The notes below the pieces were generated by a model. The model made no database searches. It was given only the letters and a program-made list of their open reading frames with translations, and was not told where the DNA came from. This document shows, one piece after another, positions 4,140 through 59,399 of a DNA stretch of 64,000 nucleotides. Numbering within the stretch: position 1 is the stretch's first letter; every line of letters starts with the position of its first letter. The translations under genes and the position numbers were made by a program. This stretch comes from Octopus vulgaris (Eukaryota), in assembly GCA_951406725.2 (NCBI GenBank), contig OX597823.1:44330001-44394000 (forward strand), written 5' to 3'.

Positions 4140-5047
4140 TCCCGCCAAGAAGAAGGTCTTTGGTTGGTCGTGCAACCATTTATGCCCTGCTTCCTTCACA
4201 TCTTCATCCATAGGAAACTGATGACCTCATAGACCATCTATGAGCAGGCCAAGGATACGACAGTTAAAAGGGGCGAGATCTAGGCTGTAGACAGAGTGTT
4301 CCAGCATCTCAAATCCCAATTGATCGATGGCTTCAACAGTCTGGGTGGCCATGTGTGGGAATGCATTTTCATGCAACAACAAAACTTTCTTTGACAATAG
4401 GCTTCAGGGTTTGATGCGAATTGCTGACCAGCAAAGCACTGTATCTTGCACTGTTGATCATACACCCCTTTACCAGGTAGTCTTCCAGTATAGGCCCTTT
4501 TGAGTCCCAAAAAAGGGTTAGTAATTTCTTTTCCACGGAAGACTGAGTCTTGGATTTCTTTGTCGCTGGTGAGCCAGAATGTTTCCACTCCATGCTCTGT
4601 CTTTTGGATTTTGCCTCATAAAGATGAACCCCTGTTTTATCTCCTGTGACTATTCTGCTAAAAAATTCCTTGCAATCAAGTAAGTGTTGGCAGACCTCAA
4701 GATGTTTGTGCTTGTGCTCTGCAGTAAGTTCTCTTGGCACCCATCTTGCACAGACTTTATGGAAGCTGAGCTCATCATGGATGATTTGATAGGTAGAACT
4801 ATGATAGGTAGAACTAATTTGATAGGTAGAACTAATCGGATCACTGCTCTTTGTTCTTCTTTGGTGCACATTGCTTGTGAAGTGGCCATGCTTATATTAT
4901 AAAGTCAGAAAGAAAAATGGTGCAATCAGGCTTAAAATTCGATCACATGATCACAATTTTACCACCTATAAGCATGCATGTGCAGAAGGCAGTGTGACAA
5001 TAATAAAGATATGTTATGACAAAAGTGCGGATAATTTTTGACTTCCC

Positions 5048-9434: not shown

Positions 9435-10610
9435 CTGAAATTAGATAAAGAGTGTTTTGTTGATTATCTGACACTGTTGTTAGATGCAAAAATACAACAT
9501 TAGCAGCATTTAAAGTTATTTTTTATTATTTTTTTTTTTGTAATGATTTGAGCGACAAATACCATCCAGAAGATGAATTCAAATGATTTTTCTATCTCCA
9601 GAAATTATATGATCAATAATATTCATCAATAATGATGATGACATGTCTCTCATTTACTTGTTTCAGTCGTTAGACTGTGGCTATGCTGAGGCACTGACTT
9701 GAAAAAAATTTTTTTAGTCAAATGAATTTTTAAGCCTGGTACTTATTCTATTATTCGCTTTTGCTGAACTGCAAAGTTACAGGGACATAAACACTCTAAC
9801 ACCAGTTGTTGAGTGGTAATGTGTGTGTGTGTGGATGGGTGGGGAGCAAGCACAGACATACACGCAAACACATATATAATGGGCTTCTTTCAGTTTCCAT
9901 CTACCAAATCCGCTCACAAGGATTTAGTCGGCTTGAGGCTATAGTTAGAAGACACTTGCCCAAGGTATCATGCAGAGGGACCAAACCTGGAACTATGTGG
10001 TTGGGAAGCAAGATTCTAAACACACAGAAATATCTGTGCCTTAAAAAGTGAGATGCTTACAGCACCTAAGTTTCTCAAGTACTATCTAGGCTTGATGTTA
10101 CTTTACTTCAGAAATTGGACAAGAACCAGTGCATTCAACATATAGCCACAAGCACTTGTTAAAAAATCCCTAAAATTTTGAGTGCAAGAACCATAACTAA
10201 CTGAACATAAAGCAGAATTGTCATATCTACATTATTTCATTCAGCCCAAAACACAAACAAATTCATTTCAGTCAAAGATTATTTCCGTTATATTGAAGGG
10301 CTGCTTGATTAGTATTCAATATGATTATCCAACGACCAAAATGGTTTCCAAGTACCAATACTTCCAGAAGCAAATCAGTGGGATTTCAGTTCACTAAACC
10401 ATAGATGAGTAGCTACAACTTATTGTGGTTAAGAAGCAGGATCACTGGTTAAGTTGAAATATTGACTTCATGTCTTCTTCTAAGCTGGGATTATTCTAGA
10501 TAGAGACACTTTTTAACCATTTCTAAACACTGCATGATAAATAGTGCTCCTTGTGAGTAAAAAAATAATGAATACATACAGAGAAGATAAAAACTTTGAA
10601 ATATACTTAC

Positions 10611-23436: not shown

Positions 23437-25115
23437 GATTCAAATCAGATATTCTTCCCTTCTGAAATACCTGAAATTTAGAGAATAGGTCAACTATTAA
23501 GAGAGGAAAGAAGAAACATACACAAAAGAATAAACTTAACAGCCAGATAGCTCTTTGATTATACATGGATTCTCATAAATTTAAGTTTACTGAGTAGGTA
23601 AGGTATTTGACTAACAGCTCATGTATAACAAGTTTAAATTTATTGCTGGTATTTTCTTGGTACTTTTGGCCTGAATTCTATTCTAACATTATTAATTTAC
23701 TAGGTCTTTACTCGTTGCTCCGCTGCCAGTAAAAATATTTGTTAAACATGCATGTACTTTCGTTTAATAGTAGACTTTTTTAAATGGGAAAAGTCTGGTT
23801 TGTTACTATGGTGACAATACTCTACCTATCTCTCTATCTTTCAAATACACATGCACATACACTCTTTCTCTTTCTCTCTCACTGAATTTCTCTCTCAACA
23901 ACATCAACCTGTCATTATAATGAAAGTTTTTTCTTGAAAGACTGTGCTACCGTTATCTCTATGTTGAAAGACATACAGAAGCACACAAATGCATGCATGC
24001 ACACACACACACAAACAATAAAAAAAATAACTACCTATATTGTTATATAATAAGTCTTTTTTTTTTTAAGCTGTTTGCATTGTATTGTTTCTATATTGAA
24101 AGACATACAAAAATACACACACACAGAACCAAAAAAAAAACCCTATAGTTGTGCTAACAGACTTAAAATTTCACATTTTTAATCAAAACTTGTTAGTTAC
24201 TATGGTGACAAAACTGTCTAACTATCTTTCACACTCTCTCTCTCTCTCCCTGTCTATCTGTCTCTCTCTCTCTATATGTACATATATATCTCAGCAACAT
24301 TTTCTCCTCCCGTTCTAAAATTTGTTGTAATGTATGTTTTGATTCCTTCCCTTCTTTCCCTCCTTCTAATAGATATTATGATGAACAGACAAATTTATAA
24401 ACAATTTATAAGGGCAAAAGAAAAAAATTTCTAATGCCAAAATATGCCGAAAATAGACAACGCCAATGACCATGTAATTTATCACTACAAGCACGCGTTT
24501 CAAAGAAAGCCGACAGAAATTTCTAAAAAATCCCATTATTACCATATCAGACCCGATTTTAGAGTTAGTTCATAAGAACCATTGAACTAACTCTGAAATA
24601 TATACCTTTAAAGGTATTTTTTAATATGCTGGCCATTGATAAAATTTTTGTTCGAAAAATTTTATCCTACATTAGATGTATATATATACACATACATATA
24701 TGTATATATATATATATATATATATCTCTTATTATAATCTCTTATTATAAAAGGCAGATTTTATCTGCCTCCCTTTGGGAGTTATACAAATCTACAATAT
24801 AGGATTTCTTCAATTACAATTTACCTAGCAATTTTAAGAGTACAATGCATCGCGTCATGCCAGGTCCAGTTTTTAAAATTTAAACTCCAATTAAGCAAAA
24901 TTTACAGAAAACTCACATTCTGGTGTGTGTGTCAAATGCTTTTCTTAGTCTGGTTTACACCACACGCAAACGCACACACACAGTGGGCAGCGAATAAAAT
25001 GAAAGTAATTTACTTACTGTAGTGAGTGATTCTTTCACTCTGCCTCCCACTTCCTCTGTCAACACAGACACGCAAATATATAAATAAAATTGTAAGCTAA
25101 CGTGCGTGTGTGTGA

Positions 25116-25150
<35 letters not shown>

Positions 25151-25244
25151 TGTGAGGGTGCGCGCGTGTGTGTGTGTGTGTGTGTGCGCGTGTGCGTGAG
25201 TGTGTGACAGGAAAGTATTTTACGACGAATATAAGTAGCAGAAA

Positions 25245-25723
25245 GATAAGACAGTAAGGTGTGATTTGAGGGAGATTTGGCTGCTATTTCTACCATGTCT
25301 AGCTGCCATGTAGGGGTCTCCCTCATAGGCTCATACATACATATATACATAGATAAGACAGTAAGGTGTGATTTGGGGGAAATTTGGCTGCTATTTCTAC
25401 CAGGTCTAGCTGCCATGTAGGGGTCTCCCTCATAGGCTCATACATACATATATACATAGATGAGACAGTAATGTGTGATTTGGGGGAAATTTGGCTGCTA
25501 TTTCTACCATGTCTAGCTGCAATGTAGGGGTCTCCCTCATAGGCTCATACATACATATATACATAGATAAGACAGTAAGGTGTGATTTGGGGGAAATTTG
25601 GCTGCTATTTCTACCAGGTCTAGCTACCATGTAGAGGTCCTCCTCATTGGCTCATATATATATACATACATAAGACAGTAAGGTGTGATTTGAGGGACAT
25701 TTGGCTGCTGTTTCTACCAGGTC
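25245..25723 (+). repeat. 107-bp minisatellite, about 4.5 units (about 2.5 units at 27637-27902)
   Basis: Unit GATAAGACAGTAAGGTGTGATTTG..GGCTCATACATACATATATACATA repeated head to tail. Confidence 0.92.
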
Positions 25724-26089
25724 TGTTAGGCCTTCTCATGTAAACGCAAGCTTTCTCATGCCTTGAACATAAGACCAAAGCAGAGAATGTATTCTTTTAT
25801 TCTTCTGCTTTTTCCAGCCATTGGTCTGTGGCCATGCTGGGGCAATGCCTTGAAGAATTGTAGTTTAATGAATCAACTCCAGTTTTATTTTTGTAAGCAT
25901 TGTACTTATTCTATCTGTTTCCTTTGTCAAACCACTAGGTGACAGGGATGTAAACAAACCAACATTCGTTGTCAAGCAGTGGTGGAGGACAATCACAAGC
26001 ACAGACACGCACACACACACACATACATGCATACACATATACACACATACATACATACATACATATATATATATGTGTGTATATATATA

Positions 26090-26411
26090 TTGCAGCGTGG
26101 AAGGTGTTTGTAAGCCATTTAAGAAACACACAAAAAGCGTTACATTCACTTCAACATTTAAATTTAATTTGCCAAAATATTTTCGTCGCTTTGAGACCGC
26201 GACCTGTTCACTGACAAAAATATCGTGCTAACAGGTCGCAGTCTCAAAGCGACGAAAATATTTTGACAAATTAAATTTAAATGTTGAAGTGAATCTAACG
26301 GTTTTTGTGTGTTTCTTAAATGGCTTATAAACACCTTCAAAGCTGCAACTGTTTTCGTTCCAGCACACGATCTCAGATCAAGTCACTTGCTATGCAAGTA
26401 CATCTCTGTAA
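26090..26411. mobile_element. Foldback element (119-bp arms, 21-nt spacer, ~60-nt tail); probable inverted Penelope pLTR pair; duplicated at 28268-28590
   Basis: 26090-26208 is the reverse complement of 26230-26348; (TA)n on both sides; contains a hammerhead-like motif. Confidence 0.8.
26168..26218 (-). ncRNA. Variant type-I hammerhead motif with G3-C8 core (second copy 28346-28396)
   Basis: TTTGTCA-GTGAACA-G-GTCGC ggtctcaaa GCGAC-GAA-AATATT-T-TGGCAAA. Confidence 0.6.
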
Positions 26412-26512
26412 CTATATATATATTTATATATATATATATATATGTATATTGGTAAAAACAGTAAGATAACAAAAGAAAGAAAGAGACCTCAATATTATGT
26501 AAATAGAGGAAA

Positions 26513-26906
26513 TCTTTATATATAAAAGTGAGGTTGTGTGTCTGTCTCCTACGATTTAGATTCCTAACTACTCCCACATTTTGCGGTGCAGTTTAACCAA
26601 AACCGGGTATCTTATAGTCGTGATTCATATCGAGACCGTCTGGGTATTAGCGCGCGTCTACGATGAGTCTACAATTTAAAAAAAATTTACCATCAATTTT
26701 TCCCATTTTTAATCCATTTTTGACATATATAAGGGAAGTAACTCTCTAAAATTTATTATTAAATCTCAGAACGTAAAAAGCTACAGTAACACCCCTCCCC
26801 CTTTGTGGTTAGCCATATTGAGATGGCTATTATACTTTACATCTCTAAAAATGCTTATATAATTATTTCCCTTACAAACCCGAGCAACGCCGGGCGATAC
26901 TGCTAG
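26513..26906 (+). mobile_element. Non-autonomous Helitron
   Basis: A|TC 5' end, subterminal hairpin CCCGAGCAACGCCGGG, CTAG|T 3' end, no TSD. Confidence 0.88.
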
Positions 26907-27523
26907 TATATATATATACATATATATGTATATATACACATACATATATGTATATATATATCTATATATATGTATATATACACATACATGTATATATATA
27001 TATATATACATATATATGTATATATATATATATATATGTATATATACACATACATGTATATATATATATATATACATATATATGTATATATATATATATA
27101 TATGTATATATACACATACGTATATATACACATACATATATCTCTTATTATAAAAGGCAGATTTTATCTGCCTCCCTTTGGGAGTTATACAAATCTACAA
27201 TATAGGATTTCTTCAATTACAATTTACCTTGCATTTTTTAAGAGTACAATGCATCGCGTCATGCCAGGTCCAGTTTTTAAAATTTAAACTCCAGTTAAGC
27301 AAAATTTACAGAAAACTCACATTCTGGTGTGTGTGTCAAATGCTTTTCTTAGTCTGGTTTACAGCACACGCAAACGCACACACACAGTGGGCAACGAATA
27401 AAATGAAAGTAATTGACTTACTGTAGTGAGTGATTCTTTCACTCTGCCTCCCACTTCCTCTTTCCACACAGACACGCAAATATATAAATAAAATTGTAAG
27501 CTAACGTGCGTGTGTGTGAGTGG

Positions 27524-27555
<32 letters not shown>

Positions 27556-28688
27556 GGGTGCGTGTGTGTGTGTGTGTGTGCGTGTGCGTGAGTGTGTTAC
27601 AGGAAAGTTTTTTACGACGAATATAAGTAGCAGAAAGATAAGACAGTAAGGTGTGATTTGAGGGAGATTTGGCTGCTATTTCTACCATGTCTAGCTGCCA
27701 TGTAGGGGTCTCCCTCATAGGCTCATACATACATATATACATAGATAAGACAGTAAGGTGTGATTTGGGGGAAATTTGGCTGCTATTTCTACCAGGTCTA
27801 GCTACCATGTAGAGGTCCTCCTCATTGGCTCATATATATATACATACATAAGACAGTAAGGTGTGATTTGAGGGACATTTGGCTGCTGTTTCTACCAGGT
27901 CTGTTAGGCCTTCTCATGTAAACGCAAGCTTTCTCATGCCTTGAACATAAGACCAAAGCAGAGAATGTATTCTTTTATTCTTCTGCTTTTTCCAGCCATT
28001 GGTCTGTGGCCATGCTGGGGCAATGCCTTGAAGAATTGTAGTTTAATGAATCAACTCCAGTTTTATTTTTGTAAGCATTGTACTTATTCTATCTGTTTCC
28101 TTTGTCAAACCACTAGGTGACAGGGATGTAAACAAACCAACATTCGTTGTCAAGCAGTGGTGGAGGACAATCACAAGCACAGACACGCACACACACACAC
28201 ATACATGCATACACATATACACACATACATACATACATACATATATATATATGTGTGTATATATATATTGCAGCGTGGAAGGTGTTTGTAAGCCATTTAA
28301 GAAACACACAAAAAGCGTTACATTCACTTCAACATTTAAATTTAATTTGCCAAAATATTTTCGTCGCTTTGAGACCGCGACCTGTTCACTGACAAAAATA
28401 TCGTGCTAACAGGTCGCGGTCTCAAAGCGACAAAAATATTTTGACAAATTAAATTTAAATGTTGAAGTGAATCTAACGGTTTTTGTGTGTTTCTTAAATG
28501 GCTTATAAACACCTTCAAAGCTGCAACTGTTTTCGTTCCAGCACACGATCTCAGATCAAGTCACTTGCTATGCAAGTACATCTCTGTAACTATTTATATA
28601 TTTATATATATATATATATGTATATTGGTAAAAACAGTAAGATAACAAAAGAAAGAAAGAGACCTCAATATTATGTAAATAGAGGAAA

Positions 28689-29072
28689 TCTTTATATATA
28701 AAAGTGAGGTTGTGTGTCTGTCTCCTACGATTTAGATTCCTAACTACTCCCACATTTTGCGGTGCAGTTTAACCAAAACCAGGTATCTTATAGTCATGAT
28801 TCATATCGAGACCGTCTGGGTATTAGCGCGCGTCTACGATGAGTCTACGATTTAAAAAAAAAATTACCATCAATTTTTCCCATTTTTGACATATATAAGG
28901 GAAGTAACTCTCTAAAATTTATTATTAAATCTCAGAACGTAAAAAGCTACAGTAACACCCCTCCCCCTTTGTGGTTAGCCATATTGAGATGGCTATTATA
29001 CTTTACATCTCTAAAAATGCTTATATAATTATTTCCCTTACAAACCCGAGCAACGCCGGGCGATACTGCTAG
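28689..29072 (+). mobile_element. Non-autonomous Helitron (same family)
   Basis: Same termini and body as 26513-26906, with a small internal deletion. Confidence 0.88.
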
Positions 29073-29106
29073 TGTATATATATATATATGTATATATACA
29101 CATACA

Positions 29107-29148
<42 letters not shown>

Positions 29149-29161
29149 CATACATATATGT

Positions 29162-29192
<31 letters not shown>

Positions 29193-29825
29193 CATACATA
29201 TATGTATATATACACATACATATATGTATATATACACATACATATATGTATATATACACATACATATATACCTTCTCTCTCTTTTCATCTGTCCCTTTCT
29301 CTTGTCTTTTGTTCTCACGTGACCGCTAGCCGCTGTTGAACGCTCTTTTCGTTCCAGCAGCCGTTGAAGCAACACGTACTTGTTCGTCTCCCTGTGGCCA
29401 TTAGGCACAACTTCATAAGCTAGCCCCATGCTCAATTCGTCCTGTCGAAAGACCCTTGTCCTACGTCCTGGTTTTGTTTTGTTGTTTATTCTTTATACTT
29501 TATTTTTACCGTTATTGTTTTACGTTTTTGTATTCTTATTGTTGTCACGTATTCTGTATTTTTGTTCGTGTACTTCGTTCGTTTTCCGTCCTCGTGTTGT
29601 ATACATTCGAAGCTTTCTTCCAGGGGATCTGATGCACTTGGCTTAGATTTCCCGTGGCGGGCTGGCCATATCGGAGCAATCTCAAGATTAATCAGCCGAA
29701 ATTGCTAAGATGATCTGGTTCTTGACTGATGACTGAGGGCTTCGAATGTCCCGTCCTGTGGTTCTTGTGTCGTCTCTGTGGCGTTTCATGTTCTTGTCCA
29801 TGTCTGTAATTATTTTTACTGTTTA

Positions 29826-31339: not shown

Positions 31340-32700
31340 CACACGTTTCTATATTGAGCAAGATGTGGGGTGGAAACCAAATGATGTTTCTGCAGTGCTT
31401 CCTTCTGTGGCTGTTAGGACCCAGCTAGTGCCTTGTTATAGTAGGGTGTTACTGAGTCAAAAATCTCCTGGCTACAGAAAAGGTTCATGGTCATCTTGCT
31501 GACATCCTTCACCAGGTTTCTGAATACATTGGGTGGGTGGGTGGGTGGGTGGGTGGCAGGAAGCTGTGTTGATATACGTCATCCTCTCATTTGGCTTGCA
31601 GTAGGGGCTGTATGTACCAGAGCTCAAATCAAGCATGACATCTAAGAAGTCCAGAGTGGTGAGATTGGTCTCGATAGTAATTTTCTGTCCCATAGAGCCA
31701 TGGGTGCTAATCAGATCTTTCCTAAGCCTATCTAGAGATGGCCAGGGCATCATCTCTATAGAGGCCAAAGAGGACAGAGGAGAATTTCATCTTTAGGACA
31801 TCAAGGATATACAACCTGATGCGGTCACATATACCAGTGCTGTCATAGGCCCCCATCACTATGTTGAAAGAACCCACGGAGTTGAATTGCTTGACCCAGG
31901 TCTGACCTTTATTGAACAGCATTGTTTTCCTGGCATGCATAATGACATCTGTGTCCCTGTTGTTAATGTCAGTGAAGCCTCTAGCAAAGGAAAGTGTCTT
32001 GACCAGTAACCCTTTTGATACAAAGAGGTGAAAATTGACTGTCGAACTGTGAGCCTTGCTCTGCCTCTCCCCTATGATGTTGCTAGAGCAACATCATAGA
32101 GAGAGGTTGGTGGTTCTCTTTATGTTGTTTTTTGATGTTCCTCAGAATGTGTTTGCTCACCAGACTGATCTCGGATTTGGCTGGGTTCATCAGGTGACAT
32201 TTGGAGCTCAAGGCAATGTTTGGTTTATGGTCTGTGATAGTAATAAAGGCATTCCTTTTAGCTAAAATCTCTACCGTATCTGCTATATCAAAGTTGGCTA
32301 ATTGTTTAGCTTCACTATTGAAGTTGTATGTGTGTGGAGAGGCGCACCTATAGTTTTGTGTAATATTGTTTTCTGGCAGCCTGTCAAAAGTATGGGTGTC
32401 TATCCTATATACGTTTTAGTCTTATCTGAAAGATTAGGGACCTGTCAGAATTTTTTTTTTTTTTTGTAGTCTAATGTCGACACGAAGTTTACATTTGAAA
32501 GAGTAAGAGGACTTAGGGAAGTTTAGCCTAGGAATGATGGTCAGCTAGTCTGCTTTGAAGGGCTCGAGGTCCTTGACCCTGGGTGGGTACGTCGTAGATT
32601 TAATCACGTATGTGTTGTTCTCCGAGGAGGGTGTGGTTAGGTCGTAGTAGAAAGCTTTCCATCGCAATCGCCTTATTAAGTCCACTTTTTGTACAGCTCG
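31340..32700 (-). mobile_element. Decayed Penelope-like element, reverse transcriptase
   Basis: MGAYDSTGICD, GLYRDDALAI, TLDFLDVMLDL, YSPYCKPN, YINTASCHP and IIWFPP across frames. Confidence 0.88.
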
Positions 32701-44211: not shown

Positions 44212-45472
44212 TCAAGACGGAGTCTTGAACTTTTCGATTTTGTGCACGCGGGAATTATTTGCAGTGATCATTTCGAGTGCATGTGTATCGTCATCTGATT
44301 CATCGTCGGTATGTATCTCTACTTTATGTACAAATTTTCTTGATTTGCACATTTTTGCATAGTGTCCTTGTTTCTTGAATTTTTCACATGTCTTGTGAAA
44401 TGCTGGGCATTTATTTCTTTTGTGATTATAACCACAATAGTGACAGTTAGTGACGTAGTGTTGACTTGGCGCTTGAAACTTCGCGGGCTTTCTGTCACTT
44501 CCGCCTTGTTCGTTTTGATGTCTGGATTGCATATGGCGAGTTATTTGAGTTTTGGCGCCTTTTCTGTCGTGTTGACTATACACCCTCGAGATTCCGTTAT
44601 CTCTTGTTTCGGATGTGACATTTAGCATCCTTGATTGGAGTCGTGTTTGCTCTGCACTGACCTGCTTGAATTGTTTTTTGTAAGTCTAAATTTGGTTCTC
44701 TCAATAATCTTTCTCTTAATCTCATGTCTCTGATTCCACAAATCAGAATATCTTTGGTGAGACTGTCTGTGAGGTTGCCGAATTCGCACTGTTGTGCCTT
44801 TTGGCGCAACTCTACCACGTACTCATCGAATTTTTGATGTTCCGCTTGTCCACATGTGAAGAATTTGTGTCTCAGGAAAGTTATGTTTTTCCTGGGTTCA
44901 CAATATGCATCGAATTTTTCGATTACTGTTTGAAGGTTCATTTCTTCGTCGGGTGAATCGAAATCCAGAGTGGAATGGATGTCTCGGCCTTTGGAACCGA
45001 TGCAAGTTAAAAACATTGAAGTTTTTACTTTGTCTGGCTTCATGTCACTTTCTGTTGCTATCAAAAAGAGATTGAATTCTTTTTTCCACTTTTTCCATGC
45101 TGCGGCTAGATTTTCCTGATTAAAGTCTAGGTCTTTTGGATGCGGTAAATTTTCCATTTCGTCTTTGAAGTATGATTTCAACTTCTTTTTTCTTTTGGTT
45201 TTGTATTTTGGGTTCTTTTAGTATTCTGACACCATGTTGTTGTTATATATATATAATGTATTGAGTATTAAAGGAAGTAGTGAGTACTTAGTATGAAAGA
45301 TTAAGAAAATGAGAGAGACTGAAAAAATGTGTTAACGATACGAGATACTTTATTAGACTGACGTTGTTGTACAAGGTATTTGTTGTGGCGGGAAACCTAC
45401 TGAATGTCCTTGTATCAAGGGAGACAATGGGCAACGTTGATTGTTCATGTTTGTTGTGATGATTACATAACA
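44212..45472 (-). mobile_element. 5' part of a Gypsy (Mag-like) LTR retrotransposon: LTR, PBS and frameshifted gag
   Basis: LTR TGTTATG..ACAACA at 45472-45235; PBS TGGTGTCAGAA at 45234-45224 (tRNA-Leu-like); gag ORF 44597..45181 (WKKWKKEF, CEFG, ICGIRD..LRERLL) and zinc-knuckle region in 44212..44628; truncated before the protease. Confidence 0.92.
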
Positions 45473-46440: not shown

Positions 46441-47125
46441 ATACAAACATACATATATATTTTTTTAATTCTTTTACTCGTTTCATCATTTGACTGCAGC
46501 CATGCTGGAGCACCGCCTTGAAGGGTTTTAGACGTAGAGATCTACCCCAGGACTTATTCTTTGTAAGCCAAGTACTTATAATATCGGTCTCTTTTGCCAA
46601 ACCGCTAAGTTACGGGGATGTAAACACACCAGCATCGGTTGTTAAGTGATTGCGGGGGGGGGGGGCCAAGCACACAAGCGACTCTTTTAATTGATCAATT
46701 TTGTTCCAAAAGTCCCAACCGTCTCATCTAAGGTGAGGACCATGTACTGCAATAGCTTGGCTTTTCAAGGGCCCACAGCTATTTAACTCCCTGTCAAAAC
46801 ATCTGAGGGGGTCTTCATGGAGTGGGGGTAGATGTTTTCAAGAAACAAATTGACCTCTTGCTATCGAAGATCCCAGATGAACTAATATCAAGGCAGGAAA
46901 CTCAAAAGAAGGCAGCGGTATCGAGCTCCCTCCTTCACCAAAAGCCAAACTCATAGAATTCGCCAATTAGAAGTTGATTACACAGCATGGCCACAGCCTC
47001 AAAGCTGAAACATATAAAAAAATAAAAGACTACACACACACACATACTGTATATACATATATATTAATTGAATAAAGTTAAAACAGTCTGGTTTTCACGT
47101 TTTTTTTTTATTATGGTATTTTAAC

Positions 47126-47165
47126 AAAATTAGTGCTTTCATAAATAGTGTACTCATCAGATTTC
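47126..47165 (-). ncRNA. Decayed canonical type-I hammerhead inside a small foldback element (47066-47275)
   Basis: GAAAT-CTGATGA-GTA cactatt TAT-GAA-AGCACT-A-ATTTT; flanking inverted repeat 47066-47105 / 47181-47220. Confidence 0.6.
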
Positions 47166-47294
47166 AAATGTGTTTAATAGAAAACATGAAAACCAGACCA
47201 TGTTTTAACTTTATTCAACTAGTATATTATTCCATAGTATATTATTCTATAGACGTTCACACAAATTCGAAACAATATACATACATATACATAC

Positions 47295-48651: not shown

Positions 48652-48681
<30 letters not shown>

Positions 48682-48685
<4 letters not shown>

Positions 48686-49321
48686 CATAAGGGACTAAAG
48701 CCATCTGAATATGGCTAGGGACAGGGCAGGGTGGTGGGGGTGTTACTGTTGCATTTAGCCCCAGGCGAACATCGACGTCACCAGAAAGGCTCGACACCGT
48801 CACGGTGTCCTTATCCTACAAAGGGAGGTAATTCCCCGATGAAGCGGAAACCACACACGGACCATGGTTTCAAGGTGTATTGCCTATCGTCGGCGTGTGG
48901 TAGGCTTCCGCTTCCTCGACGAATTCTCACTCTGCAGGATATTCATATATAGATTTTCAAGCAAAATACATTTGCTGATTTCGAAAAAAATCAGCAAATG
49001 TATTTTGCTTGAAAATCTCTATATGAATATCCTGCAGAGTGAGAATTCGTCGAGGAAGCGGAAGCCTACCACACGCCGACGATAGGCAATACACCTTGAA
49101 ACCATGGTCCGTGTGTGGTTTCCGCTTCATCGGGGAATTACCTCCCTTTGCAGGATAAGGACACCGTGACGGTGTCGAGCCTTTCTGGTGACGTCGATGT
49201 TCGCCTGGGGCTAAATGCAACAGTAACACCCCCACCACCCTGCCCTGTCCCTAGCCATATTCAGATGGCTTTAGTCCCTTATGTTATCGAGCAGTTACTG
49301 TCTATATCTCTTTTAGAGAAT

Positions 49322-49325
<4 letters not shown>
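48682..49325. mobile_element. 606-bp near-perfect palindrome with ~37-nt tail; probable inverted Penelope pLTR pair
   Basis: Arms 48682-48981 and 48988-49287, 6-nt loop, two mismatches seen by eye; (TA)n on both sides. Confidence 0.9.
49070..49115 (+). ncRNA. Variant type-I hammerhead with CCGACGA core (mirror copy 48854-48899 on -)
   Basis: CACACG-CCGACGA-TAGG caataca CCTT-GAA-ACCATGGT-C-CGTGTG; GUC site after 49109. Confidence 0.72.
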
Positions 49326-49358
<33 letters not shown>

Positions 49359-49548
49359 CAATAGTCTTCCTATTTACCTAAAACTCTATTCTATTATTCT
49401 ATTTTTTCATTTATCTACTTTATCACTGATTCTTTTGACCACTCCCCTAAGAAAGACAGTTTGTGCCCTGCCTACCCCAAAAAGTCCTCCACCACCACCC
49501 CATCAAATCTGCCTAAATGTATAAATGCCAAAACTATTCTTGACGCCA

Positions 49549-49599
49549 AGCTTCCTGATGATTTCATTTGAATGAAACAGTTCTAGTCCTGTAGAAGCT
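49549..49599 (+). ncRNA. Type-I hammerhead ribozyme, canonical core
   Basis: AGCTTC-CTGATGA-TTTC attt GAAT-GAA-ACAG ttctagtc CTGT-A-GAAGCT; GUA site after 49593. Confidence 0.8.
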
Positions 49600-49612
49600 C
49601 CTTCTATAAAAT

Positions 49613-49647
<35 letters not shown>

Positions 49648-50129: not shown

Positions 50130-51590
50130 AATTATAACCTAAAAACATACAGAAATCCACCGTTTAACTCGGCTCTCGCGAACTTTTAAAAAGATTCTAT
50201 GAACATGGCTAAACAAATAAAAGTTTTCCAGATACACAAATCCCTTTCAGAAAATCATCTCCAGATTTGCACATCCTATCTGATAAGACCGGAAATATTT
50301 ATACTGTACCGCCGAGCCTTTATAATGACTTAATCTTGAAAGAGCTTAATTTTCTGGATATAAATGTGTAAACAAGAATGTTTTGGATGATAATAATATT
50401 CATCTGGATATCAGCTCTAGTTTGGGCTTGCTGGATAGAACCCAACCTTATGCTCCCAAAACTCCCCATTGTTTTTTGAAGGACGATAAGCCTGATTTTT
50501 TTTATCAAATCCTTCGATTAGATTAATCTGCCCAACCAAGTCCGATTTGGTCAGAATCAGTAAGTATATTATTGATCGGATTATTTCCATCGTTAGTTTC
50601 AGTTTCCCCTATGGAACTTTACCGGGATGTCATTTTATGGTTTGACTCTCTTACTGATAAGCCTAATTTATACTTTATCCAATTCGATATTTCGAATTAT
50701 TACAACTCCACTTCCCCTATATTGCTAAATAAGGCTTTGATTTTCGCTCAGAAATTTGCAAATATCCATAGTTCGGATATTGATGTCATTTTAGCGGCAA
50801 GGGAGACCCGCATTTCCTTCAACGAGCGTAATTGGAGGAGGGCTGATTCCACCAATTTCTTTGATACTATGGGGTCCTCAGATTCAACACAGGTGACCGA
50901 TTTAGTGGGCCTATATCTCCTTTCGCAGATTAGGGATAGTTTTCCTCTCCTTACCGGGGAATTATATAGGGACGATGCACTTCTAGCTGCACGTGGCCAG
51001 TCTAAAACTGCGTTGAATAGACTGAAGAACGCTTTGAGAAGTTTCTTAAAAGATTTTTTAGAATCTTAACATTATTTTTGATGTTAACTCCAGAGTGGTG
51101 AATTTCTTGGATGTGACTTTGAATTTGGATACTGGTTTATACTACCCATTTCGTAAGCCAAATAAATCCATTTCATATATCAATGTCTCCTCAAATCATC
51201 TGAAATCTACTATTGATAGCATCATTACTGCCATTTCGATCAGAATCTCCAATTTGTCCGCAAACGAAGAGATTTTTTATCAACATGCACAAGTATATAA
51301 CAACGCTCTAAAGTTGAGCGGCTTCAAAACTAAAATCTCACATATACCTAACACGAGACTTAAGAACAAGCTGGCTGGTCTAGCACTTGACCATGTCATA
51401 GAAAGTCTTGAGAAACGCAATGCATTAATTGATTACTACAAATGTAGGCCATCCGCTAGATACTTATATAGAGATTTTAGGAATAGATACTGGAAGCGAA
51501 ATAGTAGTCGTGAGGAGATAAGAAAGACTAAGAGTTTACGTTCAAGAATACAGGAAGTTATCTGGTTTGCTCCCCACCTTTTCCCTTAGA
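50130..51590 (+). mobile_element. Decayed Penelope-like element, reverse transcriptase
   Basis: ORFs 50572..51069 and 51095..51589: FIQFDISNYY, MGSSDSTQVTDLVGLYLL, LYRDDALL, VNFLDVTLNL, YPFRKPN, SSNH; SDKTGNIY upstream. Confidence 0.92.
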
Positions 51591-55547: not shown

Positions 55548-55549
<2 letters not shown>

Positions 55550-55771
55550 GGAGTAAACACATAAATGTGAAACAAGGTGAAAAAAAGAGTACTCACATAC
55601 CAGGGGTAGAGTAATATGCTTTATTTCAAAGCAGCAGAAATTCAACAAAACCTGTTACTCTGAGTTTCACGTTCCCGTTCGTCGGACAGTTTTTGCTAAA
55701 AACTGTCCGACGAACGGGAACGTGAAACTCAGAGTAACAGGTTTGTTGAATTTCTGCTGCTTTGAAATAAA

Positions 55772-55776
<5 letters not shown>
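55548..55776. mobile_element. Foldback element (~80-bp arms, 3-nt loop, ~67-nt tail) in (TA)n
   Basis: 55615-55694 is the reverse complement of 55698-55776. Confidence 0.88.
55703..55740 (+). ncRNA. Minimal variant type-I hammerhead with CCGACGA core (mirror copy 55652-55689 on -)
   Basis: CTGT-CCGACGA-ACG ggaa CGT-GAA-ACTCAGAGT-A-ACAG; GUA site after 55736. Confidence 0.72.
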
Positions 55777-57800: not shown

Positions 57801-58179
57801 TGTTGTAATACTGTAATTCTGTTGGAGTTAAGAAAATGGTCTCGTTTTACCATTTATGCTTACGTAGTAATCCAATTAATGTATATATGGTTTTCATACA
57901 GTGTGAGATAAACTGTCTATAGAAGTTAAATAAGGCCAAGGGACTCGCGCAATTTTCTTAATGATGTAGGACCAGGCATATTTACAGTAAAATCACAGCT
58001 ACTTTTTCCTTCAGCGGCCGGATTCCGTATTTATCAAAACGTAGCTTTTTACGAGGTCTGGTCGAGCGACTTCGTGAGGTCCTGCAGAAACAAGAATTTG
58101 AACGAGCAGAATAATCAGGTGAGCGCAGTTTTTCAAGTTTATCTGTCACAGCCTGAATGTTGTATTCTGTCGTCTTACG

Positions 58180-58670
58180 GATCGTTATTGCCTGATGGCT
58201 GTAGTCTTCTGAGAGATCATCTCGGAACTTCAGCCACAATGAGTTTGGATCATCCACTTCGCACATCTGTAGTAACACTGCAAACAGCACACGTAGACGG
58301 CTAGGGGATTGCAAAAGAGAAGCTTCTGATAATGGGCAAATCCACTGCGAGCCATTTTCAAGCAGACCATGTTTGAAGCATGCCTCCCTGTACGTGCTGC
58401 ACACATGACCAGACTGTTCGAAGATCTTCGAATGACTGCGGTCTCGTTACTTCGTGAAGCAGCAAACGGAGGTAATAGCATTCGTGGTAATTCGGGTGTA
58501 CTGTATAAACTCGTCCAAGGCAACTGTCGAACTTTAATTCCGGGATGCCCTGGTTGGCCTGCCTTTCTGCGAACCCATTTTTTCGTGGACCATGTGTAGT
58601 AGGAGGACATTTGAGGGTAGAGCAGCGTTTGAGCAGAAGGATCGTCCTGACATTGTTTGAAAAGTGTCAA
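58180..58670 (-). mobile_element. Autonomous Helitron RepHel fragment
   Basis: AQTLLYPQMSSYYTW..KKWVRRK, ECYYLRLLLHEV, SFEDLRT, TYREACFKHGLLEN, SPSRLRVLFAVLL..CEVDDPNSLW..FRDDLSEDY. Confidence 0.88.
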
Positions 58671-59399
58671 AATAGCCGTGTTTGTACTCAAAATGGCAAA
58701 TTGAGTAACTACAAAGGTAAGGCGCAAGTAAAAGGCGTTTACAGGAGAATGATTAAAGATATCGTAAGCACTTACCAACTCTCTGTGGTAAAATGTGAAA
58801 GATTCGCCTTGTGTAATAAAAGCTGAAAGTAGAAATCGTGTTGCCAAAAAGACTCCTCGAAATGACTGGCCTGTCGTAAACCCGATCACAAAGTGTCGTA
58901 ATAGGACAAAACCCGTCAGAGCGTTTGAACCAAGTGGTCAATTTTGTGAAAGAAGAGGTATGAGTGTGTACATGAGACTGCTTTATGTTGCAGTGAATTT
59001 CCAACGCTTGTTACAATTTCTGCCTCACGAATAACATGACTTATGGGTGCATATCGATTTCAATGTCACGGCAGATAATCAATACTTTACCTAGGTGTAA
59101 TGTATACGCTGAATAATTAGGCAATAGTCCAATGCATTCGAAAAATGTAAGTGTTATAATTGAAGCACCGAGAATTATTTTCAGTAATAAAAGCTAAGGG
59201 AGACCGGGTCTAGCTGTTACACTTTTCTTTTGTCTTGGCACCCACAAAAATGAATACAGCTGAATTTTCTTTTCAGATTTAATTGGTAAAACATATTTAT
59301 TTATTGTTATCACCAGCAAAAAACAGAAATTACATAACATTAATTAGACATGTTCTAACTAATGAGGTGGTGTCAGCTGTAACAATTTTTCCCGAATGC

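Follow-up and report, generated by a model that had tools for sequence, protein, structure and literature searches.

Insertions of Penelope-like elements (PLEs) carry an inverted, 5′-truncated copy, often with a 30–40-bp tail at one end, and are biased towards TA (PMC8557442). Naiads share this inverted and tailed layout without a canonical hammerhead (PMC8557442). For Poseidon, both strands are cut and extended, and two internal reverse transcriptase (RT) start sites bound the tail; mutating the hammerhead left target-primed insertion in vitro unaffected, and a dimeric protein is predicted (PMC11167929). The origin of tandem and inverted PLE structures has been named as an open question (PMC8557442), and head-to-head repeats have been interpreted as self-priming (PMC3846280). 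Minimal hammerheads act as dimers, a circular template has been proposed, and opposite-strand hammerhead pairs 100–700 bp apart have already been noted (PMC4209133). Retrozymes have a proposed PLE origin and mobiliser (PMC7229834; Li, Clavereau and Pollet 2026, bioRxiv 10.64898/2026.07.22.740005), the mover of animal retrozymes being argued in the text of these two papers only from co-occurrence and pLTR similarity.

The palindrome considered here lies at 48682–49325 of a 64-kb window, by which we mean the whole stretch analysed (64,000 nucleotides of Octopus vulgaris OX597823.1, positions 44,330,001 to 44,394,000), situated on contig 10 of a TA-rich, 2.8-Gb genome. Rather than a self-contained foldback element, it represents a single insertion of a tandem unit of 360 bp. 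As a retrozyme-type repeat bearing a Penelope insertion scar, it belongs to a kind already known and not to a new element class: the inverted copy, the tail and the TA targets have all been described for Penelope, from which retrozymes have already been proposed to derive. It is a young head-to-head insertion of this protein-free repeat into (TA)n, probably made by a Penelope-like RT/endonuclease, which would have primed on both sides from one RNA or from a sister copy.

The 606-bp palindrome reported in the sequence-only reading is borne out, with arms at 48682–48981 and 48988–49287 (300 nt each, 99% complementary), the roughly two mismatches located at 48818 and 48950, and (TA)n on the left and right. 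The one-sided tail begins past 49287 and measures about 38–40 nt at this copy, versus 44 nt in most copies of the family (Table 1). That reading overlooked the 360-bp tandem unit, of which the arm makes up most of one turn, and the fact that the main locus and the three other loci with a similar layout represent different families. A separate repeat at 49337–49618 (+), whose hammerhead-like core at 49555 reads CTGATGA, runs out in (TA)n next to the palindrome and has relatives at our loci L202, L205 and L222.

Table 1. Features of the palindrome at the main locus and of the three other two-armed insertions (window positions)
Positions	Strand	Feature	Basis
48655..48681		Left (TA)n target run	sequence
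48682..48987	-	Untailed arm: unit 298 back to 1, then 360 to 353; 3′ end leftward (end A)	
48841..48914	-	Type I hammerhead-like motif, core CCGACGA from 48893, predicted cut after 48860	motif scan, alignment
48987..48988		Blunt head-to-head junction, both arms 5′-truncated (unit 353 / 359)	
48988..49287	+	Tailed arm, portion mirrored by left arm: unit 359–360, then 1–298	
49055..49128	+	Type I hammerhead-like motif, core CCGACGA at 49076, predicted cut after 49109	
49288..49327	+	Tail: unit 299–338; end B at 342 in most copies	
49326..49356		Right (TA)n target run	sequence
55548..55776		Separate family, like layout, with variable centres, a tail of about 67 nt and a CCGACGA core in each arm	
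26090..26411		Separate family, like layout: one complete core, tail about 64 nt, variable centres	
47066..47275		Short two-armed insertion with a single CTGATGA core, from the 3′ end of a Penelope-like family with an ORF	

A genome search gave 160 matches from the 40 scored of 1080 candidates, with frequent 360-bp spacing. Exact-pattern counts amount to at least 531 A/TA junctions (untailed, unit position 298) and at least 446 B/TA junctions (tailed, unit position 342) genome-wide, and to 1290 copies of the core-to-cut pattern of the hammerhead-like motif; the family comprises hundreds of very young copies. The fixed outer ends A and B lie 44 nt apart on the unit. Copies consist of head-to-head arms from 66 nt to 15 units long, the largest insertion (15+9 units) spanning 8.3 kb. 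No PLE ORF, of the kind encoding RT and GIY-YIG domains that defines an autonomous element, was found inside the arrays, the largest included; PLE protein matches occur at 4 of 100 loci, and those inspected fall outside the insertion. Targets are of the Penelope type, with (TA)n of at least 6 nt on both sides in 53 of 57 two-armed insertions and with target duplications of 13 and 12 bp visible at two loci whose flanks are not pure TA.

As a dispersed, non-coding unit in head-to-tail tandems, with a length inside the retrozyme range of about 170–400 nt, the 360-bp repeat is of the non-LTR retrozyme type. It resembles those of metazoans (Cervera and de la Pena 2020, PMC7229834) in its non-coding tandem unit, its multimers and the one type I hammerhead, predicted here, in each unit, and its size compares with about 350–390 bp for mussel retrozymes (PMC7229834). 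It differs from retrozymes as described in forming head-to-head tailed insertions where tandem arrays are reported, the word ‘inverted’ being absent from the text compared of PMC7229834, in its U4C core, and in that pLTR homology to an autonomous element was not found for it among about 140 PLE-bearing loci. With endonuclease-plus PLEs (Craig et al. 2021; Arkhipova et al. 2013; Frangieh et al. 2024) it shares the inverted copy, the one-end tail and the (TA)n targets, as well as partial tandems and a hammerhead (here predicted) near the 3′ end. Unlike PLE insertions, it has no ORF, and its tail of 44 nt, like the 64–67 nt seen in two neighbouring families, compares with the 30–40 nt published for PLEs. 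An older sister family has a 378-bp non-coding unit, copies about 10% diverged and a tandem and inverted layout likewise. Identity to the 360-bp unit is 66–68% across the last 135 nt and about 80% across the tail, which is the best-conserved portion of the unit in this comparison.

In the two-armed copies counted, the ends combine in one way. From 100 fetched loci we obtained 76 distinct insertions, 75 of them complete, in a non-random sample that combines top-scoring matches with the first 30 A ends and with long insertions picked by hand. In this sample 57 insertions join an A and a B end head-to-head (56 plus one case labelled complex owing to a stray match), none is A+A or B+B, 17 are single-armed and one is odd. 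Arm ends map to unit positions 293–298 (A) and 336–342 (B), so that, as in Penelope-type insertions, an inverted 5′-truncated copy stands between two fixed ends with the tail at one of them. An unbiased check took every exact junction listed for contigs 1 and 2, 84 of type A and 71 of type B, and paired them within 10 kb; 45 of 45 outward pairs were A+B. The same rule holds in the young intact autonomous family with a 775-aa frame, described below: its listed ends, 59 of type A and 100 of type B, gave A+B in 23 of 23 pairs once 10 internal tandem junctions had been left out. The rule of one short and one long end is therefore a property of Penelope-type insertion in this genome.

Variable centres with fixed outer ends had been proposed as the pattern that would support two-ended insertion, and this is the pattern observed. 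Among 58 centre junctions, 17 are blunt, 10 hold inserted bases and 31 show microhomology; microhomology of at least 3 nt occurs at 11 of 48 junctions versus 5% for random joins (10 of 47 after removal of one internal-deletion artefact). The centres are scattered across the entire unit and most are out of phase. Near-symmetric centres (within 10 nt), which include the main-locus copy, number 10 of 58 against 3.4 expected (p=0.002). The variable centres and fixed outer ends support the proposal that Penelope-type machinery primes from both sides of a TA target and leaves ORF-less palindromes. They speak against the suggestion that the palindromes are themselves mobile: a foldback element or MITE moves as a unit with a fixed internal structure, while here centres and arm lengths vary and finished copies do not appear to move as units. 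The sole repeated centre lies on 8–10 nt of microhomology and is found in two different haplotypes.

In L1 twin priming, both target strands prime reverse transcription and the inversion is joined at microhomology; the two segments derive from distinct stretches of the RNA, and the position of the second start varies. In contrast, the arms of the 360-bp family cover one sequence from two fixed starts. The predicted cut site is crossed by 105 of 133 arms in a sample biased to long arms, and no pile-up of truncations is seen there (2 of 116 ends), which suggests that the templates are uncut or circular. In two insertions (L046 and L066), three arms stop near unit position 153–158, within a unit whose haplotype is older; the source RNA may there have been linear with a fixed 5′ end, or the template may have been switched.

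The two arms of an insertion are also alike in sequence. Arm divergence is 0.86% within and 2.87% between insertions, two locus identifiers each merging two insertions in this comparison, and none of 2000 permutations was as low. At diagnostic sites the arms are fully concordant in 40 of 47 insertions (two merged-locus cases and the odd insertion left out) and differ at a single site in the other seven, compared with concordance in 246 of 2162 random pairs (11%). Several haplotypes coexist among the youngest copies, and the sharing of a haplotype by both arms disfavours random pairing from a mixed RNA pool; it fits one RNA molecule or two sister molecules alike. Gene conversion was considered as the source of the likeness and is disfavoured, since private variants are found on both arms in 5 cases and on one arm in 73, which dates the likeness to the birth of the insertion. 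The 24-unit array carries one 11-variant haplotype throughout. Mixed alleles flagged in 11 of 32 long insertions resolve into one merged-insertion artefact, five single-site cases and about five clear mosaics. A correlation of arm lengths (rho 0.34) was set aside because the long arrays were hand-picked.

One 11-unit arm (L050) has units mosaic for A/G at positions 55, 67 and 189. Editing of the RNA prior to insertion may have left this trace; across the family the signal is weak. An A-to-I footprint was not accepted, the excess of A>G over T>C among recurrent alleles (10 versus 2, p=0.017) being one of 24 uncorrected tests and the single-locus alleles standing at 13 versus 12.

In the portions compared of the PLE literature the tail is called optional and no count of an exceptionless one-of-each rule was found. 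Likewise, the strict end rule, the shared-haplotype test and head-to-head tailed retrozymes were not found described in the text compared of PMC8557442, PMC11167929, PMC3846280, PMC4209133, PMC7229834, PMC6765202 and 10.64898/2026.07.22.740005.

The claim of a hammerhead in each arm holds for the outward-reading hammerhead-like cores, one on each strand, and is qualified by their form, CCGACGA (U4C) in place of CUGANGA, and by the negative Rfam search. Reading outward, each arm holds CCGACGA, a short stem II, GAAA, a palindromic stem III (C-CATG-G) and TC, all within a long stem I; stems II and III of the main-locus motif were read by eye. Rfam returned no hammerhead over 48690–49620 at E<=10, and the whole-window list (150 of 238 hits) consists mostly of sub-threshold microRNA hairpins on simple repeats. 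The unconstrained predicted fold is an alternative rod and not a hammerhead, and holding the core open costs a predicted 7 kcal/mol and recovers stem I only. Because Rfam is silent and fold prediction prefers the rod, the call rests on motif and comparison. The exact copies of the motif and the covariation with the sister family suggest a putative type I hammerhead with a U4C core per unit. In the sister family the canonical CTGATGA is present in 24 of 26 cores and the proximal stem I is unchanged; stem II shows a G-C to A-U change, and the stem III loop is TCGA where the 360-bp family has CATG, palindromic in both. The stem III 8-mer is predicted to self-pair at -11.2 kcal/mol.

The core of the 360-bp family starts with CCGA in 202 of 219 units and with TTGA in 16 (some loci counted repeatedly). 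CCGA also predominates in the unrelated 55548 family, and the recognisable cores of the youngest autonomous family comprise 35 CCGA, 3 CTGA and 1 TCGA. Parallel selection for U4C across families is only a hypothesis, because the few CTGA cores of the youngest autonomous family could be CpG decay. Work by Lunse et al. on PLE hammerhead variants may already include U4C cores. In vitro, U4C activity is reported to be considerably lower, yet enough in vivo for a viroid (PMC3088659), and 8 of 9 Xenopus retrozyme candidates did not cleave (10.64898/2026.07.22.740005). The predicted hammerhead most likely serves RNA processing or circularisation of the repeat and not the coupling of the arms.

The same layout had been seen at 26090–26411, 47066–47275 and 55548–55776. 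Inverted arms, a single tail and TA flanks do recur at all three, while two hammerheads are present at 55548–55776 only. At 47066–47275 the second arm is short and lacks a core. The core at 26211 (-) of the 26090–26411 element is an atypical GTGAACA with a 5-bp stem II, possibly a G3/C8 swap judging from its letters; this element is present twice (26090 and 28268–28589) in a local duplication with a period of about 2.2 kb, at about 24700–29300. The proposed link between arms and Penelope ORFs was made for the 47066 family, in which a same-strand RT/GIY-YIG match lies upstream in 9 of the 30 best loci, and not for the 360-bp unit. For the 55548 and 26090 families, 30 end-anchored loci apiece yielded neither a full-unit tandem period nor a link to an ORF. 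At L146, L155 and L157, single arms belonging to the 55548 family reach from several hundred bases to more than 1.2 kb into shared non-coding sequence. Elsewhere in the window, the segments at 50527–51589, 31728–32093, 44597–45217, 4369–4896, 57982–58937 and 10054–10153 hold what look like broken PLE-like RT fragments, a gag-like frame and mariner-like and helitron-like fragments, together with a 5S rRNA match that passes the Rfam threshold.

Intact autonomous families are present in the same genome. One very young family with RT and GIY-YIG domains (L297:1798–4980 and L381–L410) counts 76 or more virtually identical copies, the majority with an open frame of 775 aa, and has a tandem period of about 4.27 kb, a TA target, A and B ends about 30 nt apart and a U4C core; its Cx4CxxC linker, read by eye, suggests that it is Neptune-like. 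A second young intact family (L281–L296) has a 781-aa frame, 98.4% mean identity among 16 copies and TA targets, and no canonical hammerhead was found in its 3′ region by pattern search. Among about 140 PLE-bearing loci, which sample few of many families, no autonomous element was found to share sequence with the 360-bp unit, so that any mobilising partner is putative. Candidates set aside for want of sequence shared with the unit are a Hydra-like family (CxCx5C linker, by eye), an old family with a bare GIY-YIG end and the young 781-aa family; the young 775-aa family and 20 further GIY-YIG loci have no detectable shared sequence. The single tail match of this search is to the older non-coding sister family. 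On its age, target and core, the 775-aa family is a candidate mover of the 360-bp unit.

We suggest that the enzyme would nick both target strands. Priming would start at unit position 298 from one nick and near 342 from the second, comparable to the two internal start sites of Poseidon in vitro. Both cDNAs would then extend through uncleaved or circular RNA before being joined, giving the head-to-head centre, and the finished palindrome would be a likely dead end. Some observations weigh against this explanation. Poseidon shows no strand difference in start site in vitro (PMC11167929) and so does not predict a strict one-of-each rule. None of the about 140 PLE-bearing loci compared revealed an autonomous element with sequence in common with the unit, the hammerhead is not the predicted minimum fold and Rfam is silent, 17 of 75 insertions are single-armed, and the main-locus copy belongs to the near-symmetric class of junctions (10 of 58), which could be made by fold-back too.

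Among the alternatives, the ribozyme dimer favoured by the sequence-only reading fares best, and we consider it improbable. Two RNAs, paired through the palindromic stem III of their hammerheads, would be delivered together and each would prime one strand. The stem III loop does change sequence yet stays palindromic, its 8-mer is predicted to self-pair, dimeric cleavage has been published (PMC4209133), and haplotypes would be shared if the dimer joined sister RNAs of a single source. However, palindromic loops are already accounted for by dimers between tandem units for cleavage, a symmetric RNA dimer leaves one short and one long end unexplained, and the arms match although several haplotypes coexist among the youngest insertions. 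Core mutants of the hammerhead did not change insertion in vitro, and it is the protein that is predicted to dimerise (PMC11167929); Naiads have the layout without canonical hammerheads (PMC8557442). Coupling of the arms by a ribozyme dimer is thus unnecessary for the layout.

Slightly less probable again is fold-back or self-priming, in which the cDNA would snap back and copy itself and the endonuclease would trim the second end to leave the tail (cf. PMC3846280, PMC8557442). The shared haplotype would follow directly, and the enrichment of near-symmetric centres, the main-locus copy included, is what such a process could give. Arm lengths largely refute simple fold-back as a family-wide route. 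Of 56 insertions, 23 have an untailed arm longer than any mirrored piece of the tailed arm could be, and in 28 the untailed arm falls short of the length needed to supply the tail. In addition, most centres are out of phase, and the tail matches the two in vitro RT start sites (PMC11167929).

Fixed outer ends, TA flanks and hundreds of copies would also suit a self-propagating foldback element or a DNA-transposon derivative with the arms as terminal inverted repeats; this is very unlikely given the variable centres and arm lengths, the tandem-array arms, the asymmetric ends, the single-armed 5′-truncated copies, the microhomology at the repeated centre and the covariation of the hammerhead stems with the sister family. 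An assembly artefact of palindromic (chimeric) long reads, which a near-perfect palindrome known here from the assembly might bring to mind, is scarcely credible: asymmetric ends are fixed across dozens of loci, the arms of the main locus mismatch at two positions, target duplications are visible at two loci and the end rule is repeated in another family.

Double priming of the Penelope type, our preferred explanation, may be extended into a joint reading that we offer tentatively and regard as rather doubtful as a whole: fixed asymmetric double priming of one RNA, U4C favoured in parallel in three unrelated families, and the youngest autonomous element as the mover. One target strand would prime at the untailed site and the other 44 nt downstream with strand displacement, both cDNAs travelling round a circle or along a multimer. 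The weakened, predicted U4C hammerhead might be favoured since it would leave templates uncut, in families that include the youngest autonomous element. If true, such double priming would account for the inverted copy and the tail in a single step.

If read through, the palindrome would yield about 300 bp of double-stranded RNA. For the family, the rule of one short and one long end, together with the shared haplotype, places quantitative constraints on any model of two-ended priming. The repeat also offers a compact test system, because a 360-nt template bears the whole Penelope scar, its copies are very young and intact RT/GIY-YIG families are present in the same genome.
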